Positions 29,953 through 45,319 of a DNA stretch of 51,676 bases are shown here, one piece after another. The notes below the pieces were generated by a model. The model did not search any database. It saw nothing but the letters and a program-made list of their open reading frames with translations, and was not told where the DNA came from. The DNA lies in the sequence record PZ534514.1. One strand, 5' to 3'. A program made the translations under genes and the position numbers. How positions within the stretch are numbered: position 1 is the first letter of the stretch; every line of letters begins with the position of its first letter. This stretch comes from a phage.

Positions 29953-30129
29953 TTATTTCTTCCCGGTCAGAATGTAACGCTTGCCATTTTTAAATCCATC
30001 GCCGTAGCCGTAATATGCGCCAGCCAGGAAGATAATCATTCCGCCGACTGACTCAACAATGCCGCTATACCCATAAGCCAAATGGGAACCAGCGATAAGG
30101 GCAATAAAAGTGATAATTACTCTTTTCAT
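29953..30129 (-). CDS. Small membrane protein
   Basis: ATG at 30129 overlapping the upstream stop (ATGA); hydrophobic. Confidence 0.5.
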   Translation of the reverse strand: MKRVIITFIALIAGSHLAYGYSGIVESVGGMIIFLAGAYYGYGDGFKNGKRYILTGKK

Positions 30130-30389
30130 ACGTGATCCCATACGTCGCACTTTTTGACAACCAGCAAACGCAGCTTGTAAGGTCGGAACTTGTGCAACTT
30201 TTTAGCGTACTCACGCGCTTCGCTGTAGCTATTGAACTCCATAGCCCAAAAGCCGAAAGCATCATCCGTCAGATATTCCCAATCCCCACTAATAACGCGG
30301 CGGCGTTGCAGGTAATAAATCTTGCATTCTGTGCAAGCAACGATCCGGTATTCAGGTTTAAAGATTCGTTTTAGTGCATTAAAAACCAT
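30126..30389 (-). CDS. Hypothetical protein
   Basis: 87-aa ORF, RBS gaggg. Confidence 0.55.
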   Translation of the reverse strand: MVFNALKRIFKPEYRIVACTECKIYYLQRRRVISGDWEYLTDDAFGFWAMEFNSYSEAREYAKKLHKFRPYKLRLLVVKKCDVWDHV

Positions 30390-30502
30390 ATTGCGGCCCT
30401 CACTGAATAAACAACTAAGAGAATCAAGAATAACACAATCATGATTTCATGAAAATTAAATGGCGGCTTTGGATTGGTTGCGTTGTTGTTATTTTCCAGC
30501 AT
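30371..30502 (-). CDS. Small membrane peptide (43 aa)
   Basis: ATG at 30502 with RBS aaaggga; C-terminal hydrophobic helix. Confidence 0.3.
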   Translation of the reverse strand: MLENNNNATNPKPPFNFHEIMIVLFLILLVVYSVRAAIWFLMH

Positions 30503-30893
30503 TTCGCGCAATCCCTTTGTACATGCAGTAAAAATCACTGCCAGGCTTTTTGAACTTGATCGCATTTCGAGCAAGTCGGCGCATCCGTCGCGCATCGTAT
30601 CGCGCTCTCTGAAATGGTATTTTCATTGCCTTAACATGGCAGCCGCGATGATCGCTGATTCGCTTAAGCTCAATCAAAACGCCTTGAGTTGCCACTACGC
30701 AATAATGATCAAATCCCAAACGGCGAGTTATGATATAGCCATTCTTGATGCGTGGTCGGTTAAACTCTTTGGTCGATCCGATATAGCGATCTGAAGCCGT
30801 TACAATCTCGCCTTTACGAATACCGCATATCTCACCACATACCCAGGTCACAACAAATTTTGTGCCTACGCGGATTTTGTGAAGATCTAACAT
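30489..30893 (-). CDS. Cys/His-rich hypothetical protein (possible zinc-binding)
   Basis: ATG at 30893 with RBS gagaggg; residues CGEIC, DHYC, HRGCH; basic C-terminus. Confidence 0.55.
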   Translation of the reverse strand: MLDLHKIRVGTKFVVTWVCGEICGIRKGEIVTASDRYIGSTKEFNRPRIKNGYIITRRLGFDHYCVVATQGVLIELKRISDHRGCHVKAMKIPFQRARYDARRMRRLARNAIKFKKPGSDFYCMYKGIARNAGK

Positions 30894-30923
30894 GTTCAAG
30901 CCCTCTCGTTGATTGGTGTTTGC

Positions 30924-30969
30924 ATTATAGCGAGGCATTGCGCCCCGCTTTTAGCAATTCGTGCTATTT
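30924..30969 (-). promoter_or_regulatory. Promoter-like element, conserved motif family
   Basis: Minus strand AAATAGCACGAATTGCTAAAAG, 22 bp, TATAAT. Confidence 0.55.
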
Positions 30970-31554
30970 GATCTTAATGTGTTTCCACTGGACAGTTTTG
31001 ATGATCTCGTCAACTGTCTTTTCTGGATCTCCATCAGTCATTGTGAAGTCGTAATGTTTTATGCGGTGATGGTATCCGCTCAGGTCAATATAGTTTCGTG
31101 AATCGCCATCAAACGTGAAACCTTCGCGATGCAGTCGGCAAATGTGCACTTCATGGCCTGCCTTAACGAGCGGTTTGATTTCTTCAGGGAATCCGCCATC
31201 ACTAATTACAACAGCCAAATCCCTGTACATCTCGTGTACTTGTTCAACCATGCGATTTCCGAAATATTGCTCGCCAAAAGTTGGCTTCATGACGTCTTCA
31301 CTAATCCAGATCATGAACTGGCGCGGCGACTTGCCTTGCAAGATTGCTTGAGGCTTTTCTTTCTGCTTGCGGTCGTTATAAAGATCAATAAACTCGTCAT
31401 ATCGGTAAACGCCAAGCATGGAGAATGCAATATCAAACATAGGCTGTTTAAACGACGCTTTAACGGCTGCGTAACGATGACCCGTTAAGTATGCCGCAAG
31501 CGTATCCTTGCCAACTCCTGGCGGTCCGTTAAGGATGATAATGTCTCGCTTCAT
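30964..31554 (-). CDS. P-loop nucleotide kinase (T4 Dnk-like)
   Basis: ATG at 31554 with RBS ggag; Walker A GPPGVGKDT; overall pattern resembles T4 deoxynucleoside monophosphate kinase. Confidence 0.65.
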   Translation of the reverse strand: MKRDIIILNGPPGVGKDTLAAYLTGHRYAAVKASFKQPMFDIAFSMLGVYRYDEFIDLYNDRKQKEKPQAILQGKSPRQFMIWISEDVMKPTFGEQYFGNRMVEQVHEMYRDLAVVISDGGFPEEIKPLVKAGHEVHICRLHREGFTFDGDSRNYIDLSGYHHRIKHYDFTMTDGDPEKTVDEIIKTVQWKHIKIK

Positions 31555-31555
31555 A

Positions 31556-31693
31556 TTAGTTTTCTCCATATCTGCTTGAATGTTTACCTGGGCGCTGCCG
31601 CTTCTTGCGATAGCGTTGATTCATCTCGCGGTGCTCGTCGTAGCTGTAGCGCTTTTTCTTGGTTACGATTTTTTCGAAGTTTCGCATCTTCAT
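31556..31693 (-). CDS. Small basic protein (45 aa)
   Basis: ATG at 31693 with RBS aggag; Lys/Arg-rich; not in ORF track because under 60 aa. Confidence 0.4.
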   Translation of the reverse strand: MKMRNFEKIVTKKKRYSYDEHREMNQRYRKKRQRPGKHSSRYGEN

Positions 31694-31748
31694 GAACTCC
31701 TGTTGTTATCTCAACATAGCGCACTGCATAAATGCGCTATAGTAAGAA

Positions 31749-31934
31749 TCACCACTTAAAACCGCTTTCATCCCGCACAATCTGGTAAAGCGCCACCCAA
31801 AAACACACAAACCAGAACATCAGAACAAGAGGCTGATCTTTATCCGTGCAATCACACTCTTTAACAAATGCGCGGAAGATGAATAAACCTGAAATATAAA
31901 AGAAAACCACTAAAAATACAAGTAACCAAATCAT
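31749..31934 (-). CDS. Small membrane protein
   Basis: 61 aa, two hydrophobic segments, ATGA overlap with upstream gene. Confidence 0.55.
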   Translation of the reverse strand: MIWLLVFLVVFFYISGLFIFRAFVKECDCTDKDQPLVLMFWFVCFWVALYQIVRDESGFKW

Positions 31935-32194
31935 TTGTTGACCCCTTCAATTACCAGCGTGTAAAGCAGAACTGGATTTTGCATGTCTCGGCGGCGCGGC
32001 TCTCGTGGCGAATCTGGCCATGCACATTTCCCGTTTGCCACAATATAACCCACCAGGTCACTAAGTTTTGATATACCGTCTCGACTAATCACGTTGTATG
32101 CAACATCTTCGCCGTCAATGGAATGGATAGCAAAGAAACTTGGCGCGCCGTCAATCTTGTCTACCGCTTTGAAAAACTCAACTTTATTAACCAT
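31931..32194 (-). CDS. Hypothetical protein
   Basis: 87-aa ORF with the conserved leader and RBS gagga. Confidence 0.55.
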   Translation of the reverse strand: MVNKVEFFKAVDKIDGAPSFFAIHSIDGEDVAYNVISRDGISKLSDLVGYIVANGKCAWPDSPREPRRRDMQNPVLLYTLVIEGVNK

Positions 32195-32225
32195 GATTTA
32201 ATCCTCGTTTGTTGTCGATGGGCTT

Positions 32226-32270
32226 ACTATACCGCAAGCCCGATAATCTGTTTTTGCAAAAGTGCTACTT
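32226..32270 (-). promoter_or_regulatory. Promoter-like element (motif variant)
   Basis: Minus strand AAGTAGCACTTTTGCAAAAAC, spacer, TATAGT, with hairpin gggctt/aagccc spanning the -10. Confidence 0.5.
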
Positions 32271-32422
32271 ACGAACGCAGAATACTTCAACTCCTTTATC
32301 GTTATCTGACATATGCAAAATTACTTGCTCTCTCGCGGCCTGGCATCTTGATTCACCGTGGAACTCACGAGACTCAATGGCGGCTGAATTGTAGCTTGTG
32401 ATAATCACAAATAGAATCCATG

Positions 32423-32962
32423 TCATTTCAATTCCTCCACGCCATGCGATTGGATATGATTATGTGGCTTGTCGTATTCCGTGACCTGATAGGTTGTGAT
32501 TCCCAGGCTGCGGAAGTGCTTAACCACGTTCGGAGAATCATCAAAAGCACACACTATGTTTTCCAGTCCGATAGCGCGCAAGACTTCTTCTTTGATGATT
32601 GTGTCTTTGCGGTTGTCTTCCTTGCGGCGCATGATTAACGCATCGTACTTGATGCCGTTTTCGTTAAGCCATTTGCAGGTGTCCTCCATTACTTCATCGC
32701 TGCGTCCGGTAAGGATAACGATGGCAAATCCAGACATCCACAAACCGTTAACCACTGCAACCGTGCTCTTAATCGGCGAATCGCCAACAGCCGCCTTATT
32801 GAACTCAGACCAGCTTTCTGTAAGGTGCAAATCTTCTGTAGGAAGCAGGTGCAAGCGATGCGTTCCGTCTGATAACGTTCCGTCCAGGTCAACGATAACA
32901 ATCGGCTTGGAAGTGGAAAAATGGTATTTGCTGCTCCAAAGTTCAAATTCGTATTTTTTCAT
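32423..32962 (-). CDS. HAD-family phosphatase, T4 Pnk 3'-phosphatase-domain-like
   Basis: ATG at 32962; DxDGT motif IVIVDLDGTLSD, ILTGR and RKDTIIKEEV...AFDDSPNVV blocks parallel the T4 Pnk phosphatase domain. Confidence 0.7.
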   Translation of the reverse strand: MKKYEFELWSSKYHFSTSKPIVIVDLDGTLSDGTHRLHLLPTEDLHLTESWSEFNKAAVGDSPIKSTVAVVNGLWMSGFAIVILTGRSDEVMEDTCKWLNENGIKYDALIMRRKEDNRKDTIIKEEVLRAIGLENIVCAFDDSPNVVKHFRSLGITTYQVTEYDKPHNHIQSHGVEELK

Positions 32963-32973
32963 TATCAAACCTA

Positions 32974-33195
32974 TCAATTAAAATGAATTTGCTTGTATTC
33001 GATTTCATCTGCCAGATCATTTAACTTATCCGCCAGCTTGCGCACCTGGTCAATGGTGAGTATCGACCTAAAATCCGGCCTGCGCCCACCTTCAAACGTG
33101 ACATCAATAAACACACGGTCGCCGAACTTGTATACCTCAAGCGCATCGCCATGATTATCAATAAACTTGTGTTTAACGCGCTTATTTGTCTCCAT
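32974..33195 (-). CDS. Hypothetical protein
   Basis: 73-aa ORF. Confidence 0.5.
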   Translation of the reverse strand: METNKRVKHKFIDNHGDALEVYKFGDRVFIDVTFEGGRRPDFRSILTIDQVRKLADKLNDLADEIEYKQIHFN

Positions 33196-33412
33196 CCTTC
33201 ACCTCCTCAAATTCAGCAATCACCATAGCGTACGCCATAACCTTAGTGCCTTCGCCACCGTTCAGGAACATGCGATGCCCCTTACTATTGCTCACGTAAA
33301 AAGATCCGGTTGATGATTTCAGTTTTTGCGCCGTATAGATTTCGCCAGGCTTGAACATTCCAGCACAACCATAATTAACGGAAACGCATTTCATCTTCTT
33401 GCTAATGTACAT
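33182..33412 (-). CDS. Hypothetical protein
   Basis: ATG at 33412 with RBS aaggag; 76 aa. Confidence 0.55.
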   Translation of the reverse strand: MYISKKMKCVSVNYGCAGMFKPGEIYTAQKLKSSTGSFYVSNSKGHRMFLNGGEGTKVMAYAMVIAEFEEVKDGDK

Positions 33413-33442
33413 CGTTTTATCTCCTTCGTTGAAAGTGAGGCC

Positions 33443-33486
33443 ATTATACCTGGCCCCACATTTGAGTTTTAACAATTCGTGCTATT
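33443..33486 (-). promoter_or_regulatory. Promoter-like element, conserved motif family
   Basis: Minus strand AAATAGCACGAATTGTTAAAAC, 21-22 bp, TATAAT. Confidence 0.55.
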
Positions 33487-34367
33487 TACACTTTGACTTT
33501 CCACTTAACCATAGTTCCGCGCTTGATGCTGATCTCTCCTGCAACAGTCCGGTTTTTCGCACTGCCATAATGAAGCAGAAGAATAACAACGTCATCATGA
33601 ATCTCGATCGTCTTTGGCTTTGCCGTTAATTCATACCATGCGCCATCATCAAGCTGGACTCCTTTTAGCGTGGCTGCAACTGGCATATCTTCAATAGCGC
33701 TCTGACTTACGAGATCTTGCGCAACAAGACCGGACGCCTTGATTGTTTGACTGTGAATCTGCTCGCCAATACGTCGCGCAGCGTTGTCTATTGCCTGCGC
33801 AAAATATGATTTACCTCCGCCAATTGGCGCATCTCCAAACAAGTGTTTTGTAATGTCTTCCACGTAGTACACCTTATCTTCTTCATTGTGCGGATTGAAT
33901 TTGTTATGAGCGTTGACAAAGAAATCAACCTTAAGCTCTGATTTCTGACCGTCGCTATAGACGCCGTTTTCTGGTGACGTATAGCGAATCGTTGAGTTAC
34001 CAACCGTGCGGAACACGATCGGATACTTGATGTTATCCACGCTTAAGCACCACAGCTTTTTGTAGTCGCAGGTTTTCATATTGACCATCGGAATTTCTGC
34101 GCGTTCCGGCGAGCGCACTGGTAACACCTGGCCTTTATATGGCTTGTAGTGCAAGCATGTGTAGCCTGGCATTGCGTAACTGTAGTCTCTGAGTGAGTTG
34201 TAGTGTTTATTGTGCGCTTCAATGAAGTGTTCAATCTCCATTGTTGAAGCGTTTGGACTTCCGTATTCGTTAAACTTAGTGCATGTCTTCTCGTCGGAAA
34301 ACATGAAGTGACCAACGCCGCGAGATTCGAAGGTGATCGGGAATTTAATGTTAGCAAGTTTTAACAT
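33486..34367 (-). CDS. Hypothetical protein with internal tandem duplication (293 aa)
   Basis: Two repeats: IKFPITFESRG...FIEAHNKHYNSL and IKYPIVFRTVG...FVNAHNKFNPH; RBS aggag. Confidence 0.65.
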   Translation of the reverse strand: MLKLANIKFPITFESRGVGHFMFSDEKTCTKFNEYGSPNASTMEIEHFIEAHNKHYNSLRDYSYAMPGYTCLHYKPYKGQVLPVRSPERAEIPMVNMKTCDYKKLWCLSVDNIKYPIVFRTVGNSTIRYTSPENGVYSDGQKSELKVDFFVNAHNKFNPHNEEDKVYYVEDITKHLFGDAPIGGGKSYFAQAIDNAARRIGEQIHSQTIKASGLVAQDLVSQSAIEDMPVAATLKGVQLDDGAWYELTAKPKTIEIHDDVVILLLHYGSAKNRTVAGEISIKRGTMVKWKVKV

Positions 34368-34421
34368 AGTGCTTTCTCCTGATTGGTTTAACTGGGCGAC
34401 GCCGTGCCGCCCTATGTGTGT

Positions 34422-34468
34422 ATTATGCCTAGTTATCGTTTTTGAGTTTTAACAAAAAGTGCTATTTA
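34422..34468 (-). promoter_or_regulatory. Promoter-like element, conserved motif family
   Basis: Minus strand AAATAGCACTTTTTGTTAAAAC, 22 bp, CATAAT, then hairpin gggcggcacggcgtcgccc. Confidence 0.55.
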
Positions 34469-34651
34469 GAATTTTACCTCTTCCACAAGCTCAACCATTT
34501 TATAACCCAGCCGATAAGAGTCACCGAACAACAAGATCCCCATAAATTCATCGCGGCTTATTGACTCTTTGCCAACCGTTCTAAGCTCGCCGTTGTGAAT
34601 CACAGTATCGCCGATCTTGATTTCTGATTTATGGACTAATTTCGTTTTCAT
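34466..34651 (-). CDS. Hypothetical protein
   Basis: 61-aa ORF. Confidence 0.45.
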   Translation of the reverse strand: MKTKLVHKSEIKIGDTVIHNGELRTVGKESISRDEFMGILLFGDSYRLGYKMVELVEEVKF

Positions 34652-44105: not shown

Positions 44106-45221
44106 TCAACCAGCCATTTCTGGATAATGCATAAATCGCCCGACTTCTCCGTATTCTTTATCGTAAACAATAACAGCCGCACGGCGACGAGAACGCCACC
44201 CACCGCGCGCCGCATATGCATCTTTTGCCGCCATAGTGCTATGCACTTCAACAATGCCCAGGCTTGTTTCAGTTACTGTCTGATGATGCCAGTGCCCTAC
44301 GTGAGCATACATCATTTTTGAATTGCCGAAGTCTTCGCGCCAGTCTGCCGCGCACATCATTAGCAATGTTTCAGGTTTGCGGATAGTATGCCCGTGATGG
44401 TATGCCAGGAACGTTTTGCCATATTGTGTGTGATGAACTACTCGCGGAGACACATCAACATGCACACGCGGCTCATTCTCATATGCTGCCGCCATTGCTG
44501 CGCGCAACCAGATCATGCCGCTTTGGTCGTGGTTTCCTTCAATAATCTGAATCTCGACGTTTTTGTGTTTTGATAACAGCTTTGTAATTGCTCGACGCAC
44601 TGACCGAATGGCAACGTAGACCAGTTTTGCGTATCGACTATCTTGATCCAATACGTGACCGCTTGCAGGTGTTACCGCTTCCAGTCCGTCGCTGTGAAGC
44701 ATATCACCACCAATCAGCAAGACAGCTTTTTCACTATCCGGCGCGCACTGGATGGAATAATCAATGAAATTATTCATTACGCGCTCTGCTGTTGCTGTAT
44801 CCCAATTCTCGCCGCATTCATGCTTATGCGCCATTGCTCCCAGGTGCATATCAAAGATCGGATACAGTGATAACGTCTCGCTATAATCATTTTGTGATTC
44901 TTGCTGTGGATCAAGTCGAGGAACTTCTTCGCTAAATGCATCCATAGCGGCCTGCATTAATGCTTCTAACTGTTCGCGGTCCTTACTTGTCTTAACCCAT
45001 GTCATAACCACATTGCCATCTTTATCAATTAGCTTTGATTCTCCAGTAACACCAAAACCAGGTGATCCGATGGTTGTAACTTTACCTTGCTTTGCTAATC
45101 GTGCCGCGCGGCGCTCAATGCTGCGAACGTTCATACCATACTCATTAGCGATCTGCTTATATGTCTTTCCCTGCTTGCGCTCATTGATAAATTGTTCATC
45201 TGTGATTTTGATTTGCTTCAT
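44106..45221 (-). CDS. Calcineurin-like metallophosphoesterase with N-terminal HTH
   Basis: ATG at 45221 with RBS aaggag; GDMLHSDG and EGNHDQ motifs; HTH-like YKQIANEYGMNVRSIERR. Confidence 0.7.
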   Translation of the reverse strand: MKQIKITDEQFINERKQGKTYKQIANEYGMNVRSIERRAARLAKQGKVTTIGSPGFGVTGESKLIDKDGNVVMTWVKTSKDREQLEALMQAAMDAFSEEVPRLDPQQESQNDYSETLSLYPIFDMHLGAMAHKHECGENWDTATAERVMNNFIDYSIQCAPDSEKAVLLIGGDMLHSDGLEAVTPASGHVLDQDSRYAKLVYVAIRSVRRAITKLLSKHKNVEIQIIEGNHDQSGMIWLRAAMAAAYENEPRVHVDVSPRVVHHTQYGKTFLAYHHGHTIRKPETLLMMCAADWREDFGNSKMMYAHVGHWHHQTVTETSLGIVEVHSTMAAKDAYAARGGWRSRRRAAVIVYDKEYGEVGRFMHYPEMAG

Positions 45222-45319
45222 CAAAAATTCTCCTTATCTCATTATGACAACATATACAATAGAGATCGCCATCATAACAGGTAAGGGCAAAAGTAACAAA
45301 CGCCACATGATAACAATCC

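Follow-up and report, generated by a model that had tools for sequence, protein, structure and literature searches.

Phage-encoded deoxynucleoside monophosphate (dNMP) kinases (DNKs) are known triggers of the bacterial Kongming defence (Zeng et al., 'Base-modified nucleotides mediate immune signaling in bacteria', 10.1101/2024.12.20.629578). In that study the DNK of phage Rao1 (R1DNK) phosphorylated dAMP, dGMP, dCMP and dTMP in vitro, the exchange K15A abolished triggering, and deletion of dnk reduced dATP without impairing fitness in the laboratory. Kongming is likewise triggered by the DNK of phage KarlJaspers (QXV82329.1), and the distribution of DNKs across phages tracks Kongming sensitivity. 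Phage T5 has a 5'-deoxynucleotidase, Dmp, in addition to its Dnk; homologues of Dmp often co-exist with DNKs, and Dmps have anti-Kongming activity. Rao1 accumulates dAMP and is sensitive to Kongming, and T5 Dmp provided in trans rescues it (all 10.1101/2024.12.20.629578). The present analysis addresses a phage DNA of 51,676 nucleotides (PZ534514.1, analysed over its full length and referred to as the window), in which a DNK gene is preceded on the same strand by a gene for a stand-alone HAD phosphatase of the Pnkp type. We propose that the two genes probably constitute a nucleotide-pool module of a T1-like phage, and not a system for healing nucleic-acid ends. The proposal is based on the family of the kinase, on conserved synteny and natural fusions of the two genes, on partner enzymes in other phages that handle 5'-dNMPs, and on the absence of a ligase.

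Megablast of positions 30000-34000 matched 133 phage records, with Hanrivervirus genomes at the top (90-94% identity). Over 89% of its length the window is about 96% identical to Escherichia phage phiE31-2, with which it is collinear throughout; it thus represents an essentially complete genome of a T1-like coliphage (Hanrivervirus; Drexlerviridae, Tempevirinae). Positions 30964-32962 begin exactly at the stop of the kinase gene and end at the start of the HAD gene. The region is part of a minus-strand early-gene block upstream of the terminase genes, and the gene layout at the locus is identical in phage KarlJaspers. Given the hundreds of conserved homologues of each protein (265 clusters for the kinase, 637 for HAD), neither is a chance open reading frame (ORF).

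The kinase ORF (30964-31569, minus strand, 201 residues) has an alternative upstream ATG at 31569 and contains the P-loop motif GPPGVGKDT. Its true start is likely the second ATG at 31554, yielding 196 residues, because GGAG is found 9 nt upstream and homologues begin at the second Met. The protein matched PHROG 139 'deoxynucleoside monophosphate kinase' with E 1.1e-51, a family that T4 Dnk, T5 DNK and R1DNK match as well. In a PDB fold search, the AlphaFold (AF2) model (pLDDT 92) retrieved T4 Dnk (1DEK) as top match at TMq 0.68, followed by adenylate kinases; T4 Pnk (1LTQ) did not appear among the top 50. Comparison of the kinase family with T4 Dnk by hhalign aligned residues 2-95 at 70.7% probability, whereas only 27 residues, confined to the P-loop, aligned with T4 Pnk. 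Searches against Pfam returned sub-threshold P-loop matches only (AAA_33, E 0.2), as did NCBIfam. Phmmer and profile searches of PDB sequences gave generic P-loop matches only, and the link to T4 Dnk came via the fold search and hhalign. Pfam PF21448 (DNMK) matches the T4 and T5 enzymes but neither the window kinase (at E <= 1) nor R1DNK (at E <= 0.1), and the T1-like DNK clade lies outside this narrow model. Within the P-loop, G15, K16, D17 and T18 are invariant across 65 homologues, the Lys being the counterpart of K15 in R1DNK.

The window kinase shares 95% identity with the KarlJaspers DNK and 46% with R1DNK. With an experimentally studied orthologue and homologue at these distances it groups firmly with the dNMP kinases, and it is predicted to be an enzyme of an already characterised kind as well as a Kongming trigger. 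The conversion of dNMP and ATP into deoxynucleoside diphosphate (dNDP), shown for close relatives, is predicted for the window kinase on the same grounds. An earlier sequence-only reading of this DNA had likened the kinase to T4 Dnk. Family and fold comparisons uphold this likeness, and the profiles separate the protein from the Pnk kinases, PHROG 139 being significant and AAA_33 not.

The HAD gene was delimited mechanically as 32423-32977 (minus strand) with a TTG start at 32977; the ATG at 32962 was accepted. The product carries the motifs DLDGT, TGR, RKD..K and DD and has no kinase domain. It matched Pfam PF25109 (HAD_PNKP) with 80.6 bits against a cut-off of 27.6 (E 1.6e-22) and PHROG 415 with E 1e-66. 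Sequence matches in the PDB were Pnkp1 (4XRP) and T4 Pnk (1LTQ, 5UJ0), and hhalign to the T4 Pnk phosphatase reached 95.9% probability with 32% identity over motifs II-IV. The AlphaFold model, with core pLDDT above 90 and low confidence for the cap loop and the C-terminus, retrieved T4 Pnkp or Pnkp1 in each of the top 21 PDB fold matches (including 5UJ0, 2IA5 and 4XRU). Among viral structure models, T1-like 'kinase-phosphatases' matched first and full-length Pnks second. Nine residues invariant in 30 homologues (D25, D27, R36, T85, R87, D120, K124, D141 and D142) align to D165, D167, R176, S211, R213, D254, K258, D277 and D278 of T4 Pnkp, respectively; the latter are reportedly essential for the phosphatase, as judged by mutagenesis in the Shuman laboratory. 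Judged by Pfam family, conservation of the T4 catalytic residues and modelled fold, the protein qualifies as a true Pnkp-type phosphatase, and it is very likely active. The block-by-block agreement with the T4 Pnk phosphatase that had been read from the letters is thus reproduced by independent comparisons. The annotations 'polynucleotide kinase' and 'kinase-phosphatase' attached to this HAD clade are misnomers.

The HAD family comprises 10,998 representatives of 50%-identity clusters at E <= 1e-3, and its best 150 members are mostly stand-alone proteins of 145-170 residues. The spacer between motifs I and II measures 60 residues in the window HAD and 46 in T4. A longer cap spacer was considered as a mark of small-molecule HADs and rejected, since full-length Pnkp-like proteins likewise have 55-62 residues here and T4 is the outlier. 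Many HAD orthologues (P0123 and P0130 with 236-237 residues, P0122, P0147, P0238, P0241 and P0242) are extended at the C-terminus by modules missing from the window HAD, namely a domain of about 57 residues (ITKRARFVGSKDS...), a Cys-rich, zinc-ribbon-like segment (ECEGEHCFSVVDGKCLRCG), or both. A fusion of HAD with the 53-residue ORF of the window was ruled out as the origin of the 237-residue variants, the C-terminal extension being unrelated.

How tightly the two genes are linked was read from 80 IMG/VR loci retrieved with the kinase profile (the DNK-anchored set). HAD lies upstream of DNK on the same strand in 71 of these, with order and strand invariant in all 71; the genes are adjacent or overlapping in 35 loci, whereas in the other 36 small ORFs spanning 0.45-2.1 kb lie between them. 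Webervirus and Rao1 share the order metallophosphoesterase 'DNA repair exonuclease', HAD, DNK, holin. For phage KanT1, a 2026 paper noted the same pair after an exonuclease and guessed at nucleotide supply. Natural fusion proteins were found as well, with HAD N-terminal and DNK C-terminal. One of them (P0256, 403 residues) occurs on three contigs, of which two were retrieved and read, originating from different sequencing runs; its gene (locus L092) is followed by a metallophosphoesterase of the same exonuclease family. A second fusion (P0266, 461 residues) stems from a separate sequencing run and is 37% identical to P0256, with the linker in common. Such fusions are rare, each being a singleton at 90% identity. 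Based on conserved synteny and natural fusions, HAD and DNK are a unit, as the sequence-only reading had implied by calling it 'split', and the window has the common, separated form of this ancestrally co-translated unit.

A further chimera (P0272, 243 residues, on a 52-kb contig) joins the N-terminal half of HAD, through motif II, to the kinase from about residue 47. It has neither HAD motifs III-IV nor the P-loop, looks as if two adjacent genes had been joined by a deletion, and probably has no function.

The context of the HAD clade in other phages was addressed with a locus search anchored on a diverse alignment; single distant-HAD queries returned no loci. Directly downstream of HAD, the closest loci have DNK in 13 cases and a MazZ-like dATP/dGTP diphosphohydrolase of family PF18909 in 8 (L096, L097, L101, L107, L110-L112 and L114, at about 5430-6080 in each). 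The latter are found on contigs of about 42-44 kb, never together with DNK, and T7-like genes were present in the two that were examined. Here the HAD-MazZ-like pair is positioned between endonuclease VII and RNA polymerase, and one HAD-MazZ fusion (P0257) was identified. 5'-dNMPs are the substrate of DNK and the product of a MazZ-type enzyme; as both partner types handle 5'-dNMPs, the context points to a role in the nucleotide pool. A second, independent pairing of kinase and nucleotidase is seen in Vequintavirus, where the gene of an NT5C-family HAD 5'(3')-deoxyribonucleotidase overlaps the DNK stop by 7 nt. In Escherichia phage nom (L088, 5998-7199), DNK and the NT5C-family HAD are followed by thymidylate synthase and ribonucleotide reductase genes.

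Phosphoesterases of other kinds accompany DNK elsewhere too: in three Autographiviridae a metallophosphoesterase lies just upstream of DNK, with one small ORF between them in two cases, and T5 has Dmp. In some T7-like phages of 44-45 kb (L045, 9998-11523; L091, 5995-7528), an ATP-dependent DNA ligase (KxDG) follows directly after DNK, and this ligase is annotated as such in Marinomonas phage CB5A. DNK thus occupies different DNA-metabolism neighbourhoods across phage families.

Within the present genome no ligase was found: the annotation of phiE31-2, collinear and 96% identical, includes none, segments that do not align to phiE31-2 are short, and no ligase domain turned up when large ORFs of the window that were unaligned or of unknown function were scanned with Pfam and PHROG. 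The remark of the sequence-only reading that no ligase is evident is in agreement with this result.

In the proposed module, the kinase would use ATP to convert dNMPs, derived largely from the breakdown of host DNA, into dNDPs, which host Ndk would in turn convert into deoxynucleoside triphosphates (dNTPs) for phage replication. The same kinase activity would be what Kongming senses. The HAD enzyme would act as a Mg2+-dependent aspartyl-phosphatase of the Pnkp phosphatase family on deoxynucleotide phosphomonoesters. In the ancestral state its gene would have adjoined or overlapped the kinase gene, the two being translated together, and occasionally the two proteins are fused; in Hanrivervirus, variable small ORFs would have been inserted between the two genes. 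Two activities can be envisaged for it. It may trim the pool, removing 3'-phosphates from pdNp, 3'-dNMPs or 3'-phosphorylated DNA ends so that 5'-dNMPs are fed to the kinase. Such a feeder role is suggested by the closer relation of HAD to Pnkp, by the Rao1 data, and by the fusions, which are sensible if the product of the phosphatase is the substrate of the kinase. Alternatively, it may be a nucleotidase selective for dNMPs and working against the kinase, comparable to T5 Dmp beside T5 Dnk. This role is suggested by the PHROG shared with Dmp, the recurrent pairing of DNKs with nucleotidases, and the dNMP-producing MazZ-like partner.

A more far-reaching reading is that HAD and dNMP kinase form a conserved, sometimes fused two-enzyme unit in which the specificity of the phosphatase is complementary to that of the kinase. 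We regard this as a speculative proposal that is rather unlikely to hold. Possible forms of it are the conversion of 3',5'-bisphosphates or 3'-dNMPs from host DNA into kinase substrates, a phosphotransferase that turns deoxynucleosides into dNMPs, or the destruction of non-canonical or signalling-precursor dNMPs such as dIMP.

Several observations weigh against a nucleotide-pool role of the HAD enzyme. In sequence comparisons it appears clearly closer to the 3'-phosphatase of T4 Pnkp, an enzyme of polynucleotide ends, than to T5 Dmp. Against the 95.9% for the T4 Pnk phosphatase, hhalign with T5 Dmp reached 27% probability, over motif I only, and BLASTP with Dmp aligned 17 residues. A phmmer query with T4 Pnk retrieved 84 members of the HAD clade and one with T5 Dmp retrieved 0. 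Because every T4 residue for 3'-phosphatase activity is kept, HAD may act on a polynucleotide substrate; these catalytic residues are common to both enzyme types and do not decide between a 3'- and a 5'-phosphate. A literature search returned no biochemical data for stand-alone T1-like members. Leads from the literature were discarded: the Clover paper concerns T5 Dmp only, JSS1_004 is a T7 gp0.7-type protein kinase and irrelevant, and in the retron Eco2 paper PNK is merely a reagent. HAD is missing from 9 of the 80 DNK loci, and most of the more distant stand-alone HADs have neither a kinase nor a MazZ-like partner nearby; the partnership is therefore lineage- or clade-specific and not obligatory. 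Finally, a simple 5'-dNMP nucleotidase is hard to reconcile with the fusion proteins, in which it would compete with the dNMP kinase, and also with the dAMP accumulation of Rao1, its sensitivity to Kongming and its rescue by T5 Dmp.

The last point bears directly on the alternative that HAD is a Dmp-like 5'-deoxynucleotidase restraining the output of its own DNK (dAMP, dIMP or another dNMP), by which the phage would avert Kongming or dNTP-sensing systems. T5 Dmp, VPG01 Dmp and the window HAD all fall into PHROG 415 and share the motif set DxDGT-x5-HR, T-x-R, KD..K and DD. Such a role would also be in line with the frequent occurrence of anti-Kongming Dmp homologues alongside DNKs (10.1101/2024.12.20.629578), with the order DNK then NT5C nucleotidase in Vequintavirus, and with the pairing of HAD with the dNMP-producing MazZ-like enzyme. 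However, Rao1 carries a HAD 59% identical to that of the window beside its DNK and is still rescued only when T5 Dmp is provided in trans. Kongming is triggered by the KarlJaspers DNK, DNK distribution correlates with sensitivity, and the direct similarity to Dmp is weak and confined to motif I. Phage Bas26 is Kongming-sensitive despite a functional Dmp, so that the Rao1 argument is not decisive. Taken together, we consider a Dmp-like function doubtful. A further alternative is a split, ligase-less version of end healing, in which HAD strips 3'-phosphates, the kinase phosphorylates 5'-OH ends of RNA or DNA cut by host nucleases, and a host ligase such as LigA seals them. In its favour, HAD is a bona fide Pnkp-type phosphatase with the T4 fold and all residues essential in T4, the phosphatase-then-kinase order and the fusions recall mammalian PNKP, and the metallophosphoesterase 'DNA repair exonuclease' adjoins the pair in other genera. 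Still, the kinase is of the Dnk type with dNMP substrates demonstrated in homologues, its match to T4 Pnk is limited to the P-loop, and neither an RNA nor a DNA ligase was found. Moreover, the partner of the sister HAD clade is a dNTP pyrophosphohydrolase, an enzyme that plays no part in healing ends. E. coli RtcB, a host RNA ligase, requires 3'-P/5'-OH ends, the very ends that healing destroys. We therefore consider end healing very unlikely.

That HAD and kinase have no functional connection and lie near each other by accident, within an early region of mosaic make-up, is hardly credible. Four unrelated small ORFs lie between the genes in Hanrivervirus, the partners are at times found apart, and dnk of Rao1 is dispensable in the laboratory, but invariant order and strand, adjacency or overlap in 35 loci and independently sampled fusion proteins argue against coincidence. 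The nucleotide-pool module remains the favoured interpretation. Where the sequence-only reading left the choice between nucleotide salvage and end healing, the evidence favours salvage or pool control; its RNA-repair option finds no support, considering that the kinase groups with dNMP kinases, that T4 Pnk is matched at the P-loop only, and that a ligase is absent.

Table 1. Features of the window discussed in the text.
Feature	Coordinates	Strand	Basis
dNMP kinase (DNK), 196 aa	30964..31554	-	PHROG 139, fold, KarlJaspers/R1DNK identity
45-aa very basic ORF	31556..31693	-	PHROG 8176 at 1.8e-4
61-aa hydrophobic (membrane-like) ORF	31749..31934	-	PHROG 9755 at 5.4e-28
87-aa ORF	31931..32194	-	PHROG 25318 at 3.2e-6
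53-aa ORF	32265..32426	-	PHROG 5579 at 1e-7
Stand-alone Pnkp-type HAD phosphatase, 179 aa	32423..32962	-	PF25109, PHROG 415, fold
Metallophosphoesterase 'DNA repair exonuclease'	44106..45224	-	PHROG 704 at 5e-151

The 868-bp interval between kinase and HAD genes holds four small ORFs, each matching a PHROG family (Table 1). The sequence-only reading had placed a single small basic ORF here. This ORF exists, with 45 residues, albeit as one of four. It abuts the kinase start translationally, the ATG at 31554 being located 1 nt past its stop, and it matched Pfam Phage_1_1 (T7 gp1.1) weakly and below the cut-off (E 0.029). Together with the 61-residue ORF it is missing from the 96%-identical phiE31-2 and present in KarlJaspers. 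The two ORFs are therefore variable inserts and lie outside the kinase/HAD pair. The 87-residue ORF is kept in KarlJaspers, JakobBernoulli and phiE31-2. The 53-residue ORF is translationally coupled to the HAD gene by an ATGA overlap with the HAD stop, with GGAGG 8 nt upstream. Between the 61- and 45-residue ORFs, positions 31714-31738 (minus strand) form a perfect 8-bp inverted repeat (ATAGCGCA ... TGCGCTAT) with a 9-nt loop and no T-run after it, possibly an RNA processing or attenuation element, or an insertion scar. In a scan of 30400-34600 for promoters and terminators, the number of sites did not exceed chance expectation, and no minus-strand site fell between the kinase and HAD genes.

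Opposite the HAD gene, a 161-residue antisense ORF was noted at 32496-32981 (plus strand), and there are other long antisense ORFs within 30964-32977. None of these is backed by a protein family, and most likely they merely shadow the genes on the minus strand. A 293-residue ORF at 33486-34367 (minus strand) matched PHROG 7116 in two stretches and shows an apparent internal tandem duplication (NIKFPITFESRGVG...AHNKHYN and NIKYPIVFRTVGNS...AHNKFNP). Its homologue in phiE31-2 is labelled 'tail fiber protein', a name that appears unjustified given its position among early genes. The metallophosphoesterase that adjoins the HAD and DNK genes in other T1-like genera is remote from them here.

The kinase is of a known kind and the locus is mostly an ordinary gene pair in a well-sampled phage genus; what interest it holds is modest and lies in the mis-annotated phosphatase partner. 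Thousands of phage genes of the HAD clade are labelled 'polynucleotide kinase' or 'kinase-phosphatase' despite having no kinase domain, and their partners are dNMP-handling enzymes, not ligases. As the partner of a Kongming-triggering kinase, HAD is an obvious candidate modulator of dNMP pools and hence of sensitivity to nucleotide-sensing defences. If true, the complementary HAD/kinase unit would be a previously undescribed phage kinase/phosphatase circuit that shapes dNTP supply and the visibility of the phage to nucleotide-sensing immunity such as Kongming.

Compared with the DNKs studied by Zeng et al., the window kinase belongs to the same family, has the same P-loop Lys, and is an orthologue in another Hanrivervirus isolate. 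In KarlJaspers and Rao1, as in the window, a HAD gene annotated 'polynucleotide kinase' lies upstream of DNK; HAD was outside the scope of that study. T4 Dnk (gp1, 1DEK, PF21448) has in common with the window kinase the NMP-kinase fold (TMq 0.68), a GxxGxGKDT P-loop and PHROG 139. At 14% identity, however, the window kinase is about 45 residues shorter and does not match PF21448. Moreover, the substrate set of T4 Dnk is specialised (hmdCMP, dGMP, dTMP), unlike R1DNK, which takes all four dNMPs. The window HAD resembles the 3'-phosphatase domain of T4 Pnkp/PseT (1LTQ, 5UJ0) and Pnkp1 (4XRP) in HAD_PNKP family, fold and nine catalytic residues. It differs in standing alone, without the AAA_33 Pnk kinase domain, in having a Dnk-type partner and no RNA ligase, in an N-terminal beta-hairpin, and in a motif I-II spacer that is 14 residues longer and similar to that of other full-length Pnkps. 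With T5 Dmp it has in common that both are HAD phosphatases of PHROG 415 with the same catalytic motif set and a co-occurring phage DNK. Conversely, T5 Dmp has large insertions and a C-terminal extension, is encoded by a pre-early gene remote from dnk, shows very weak direct similarity restricted to motif I, and is not replaced in vivo by the Rao1 homologue of the window HAD. In mammalian PNKP the phosphatase domain precedes the kinase domain, and the fusions P0256 and P0266 likewise have a HAD phosphatase N-terminal to a P-loop kinase; the likeness is one of architecture only, as the kinase half is here a dNMP kinase.

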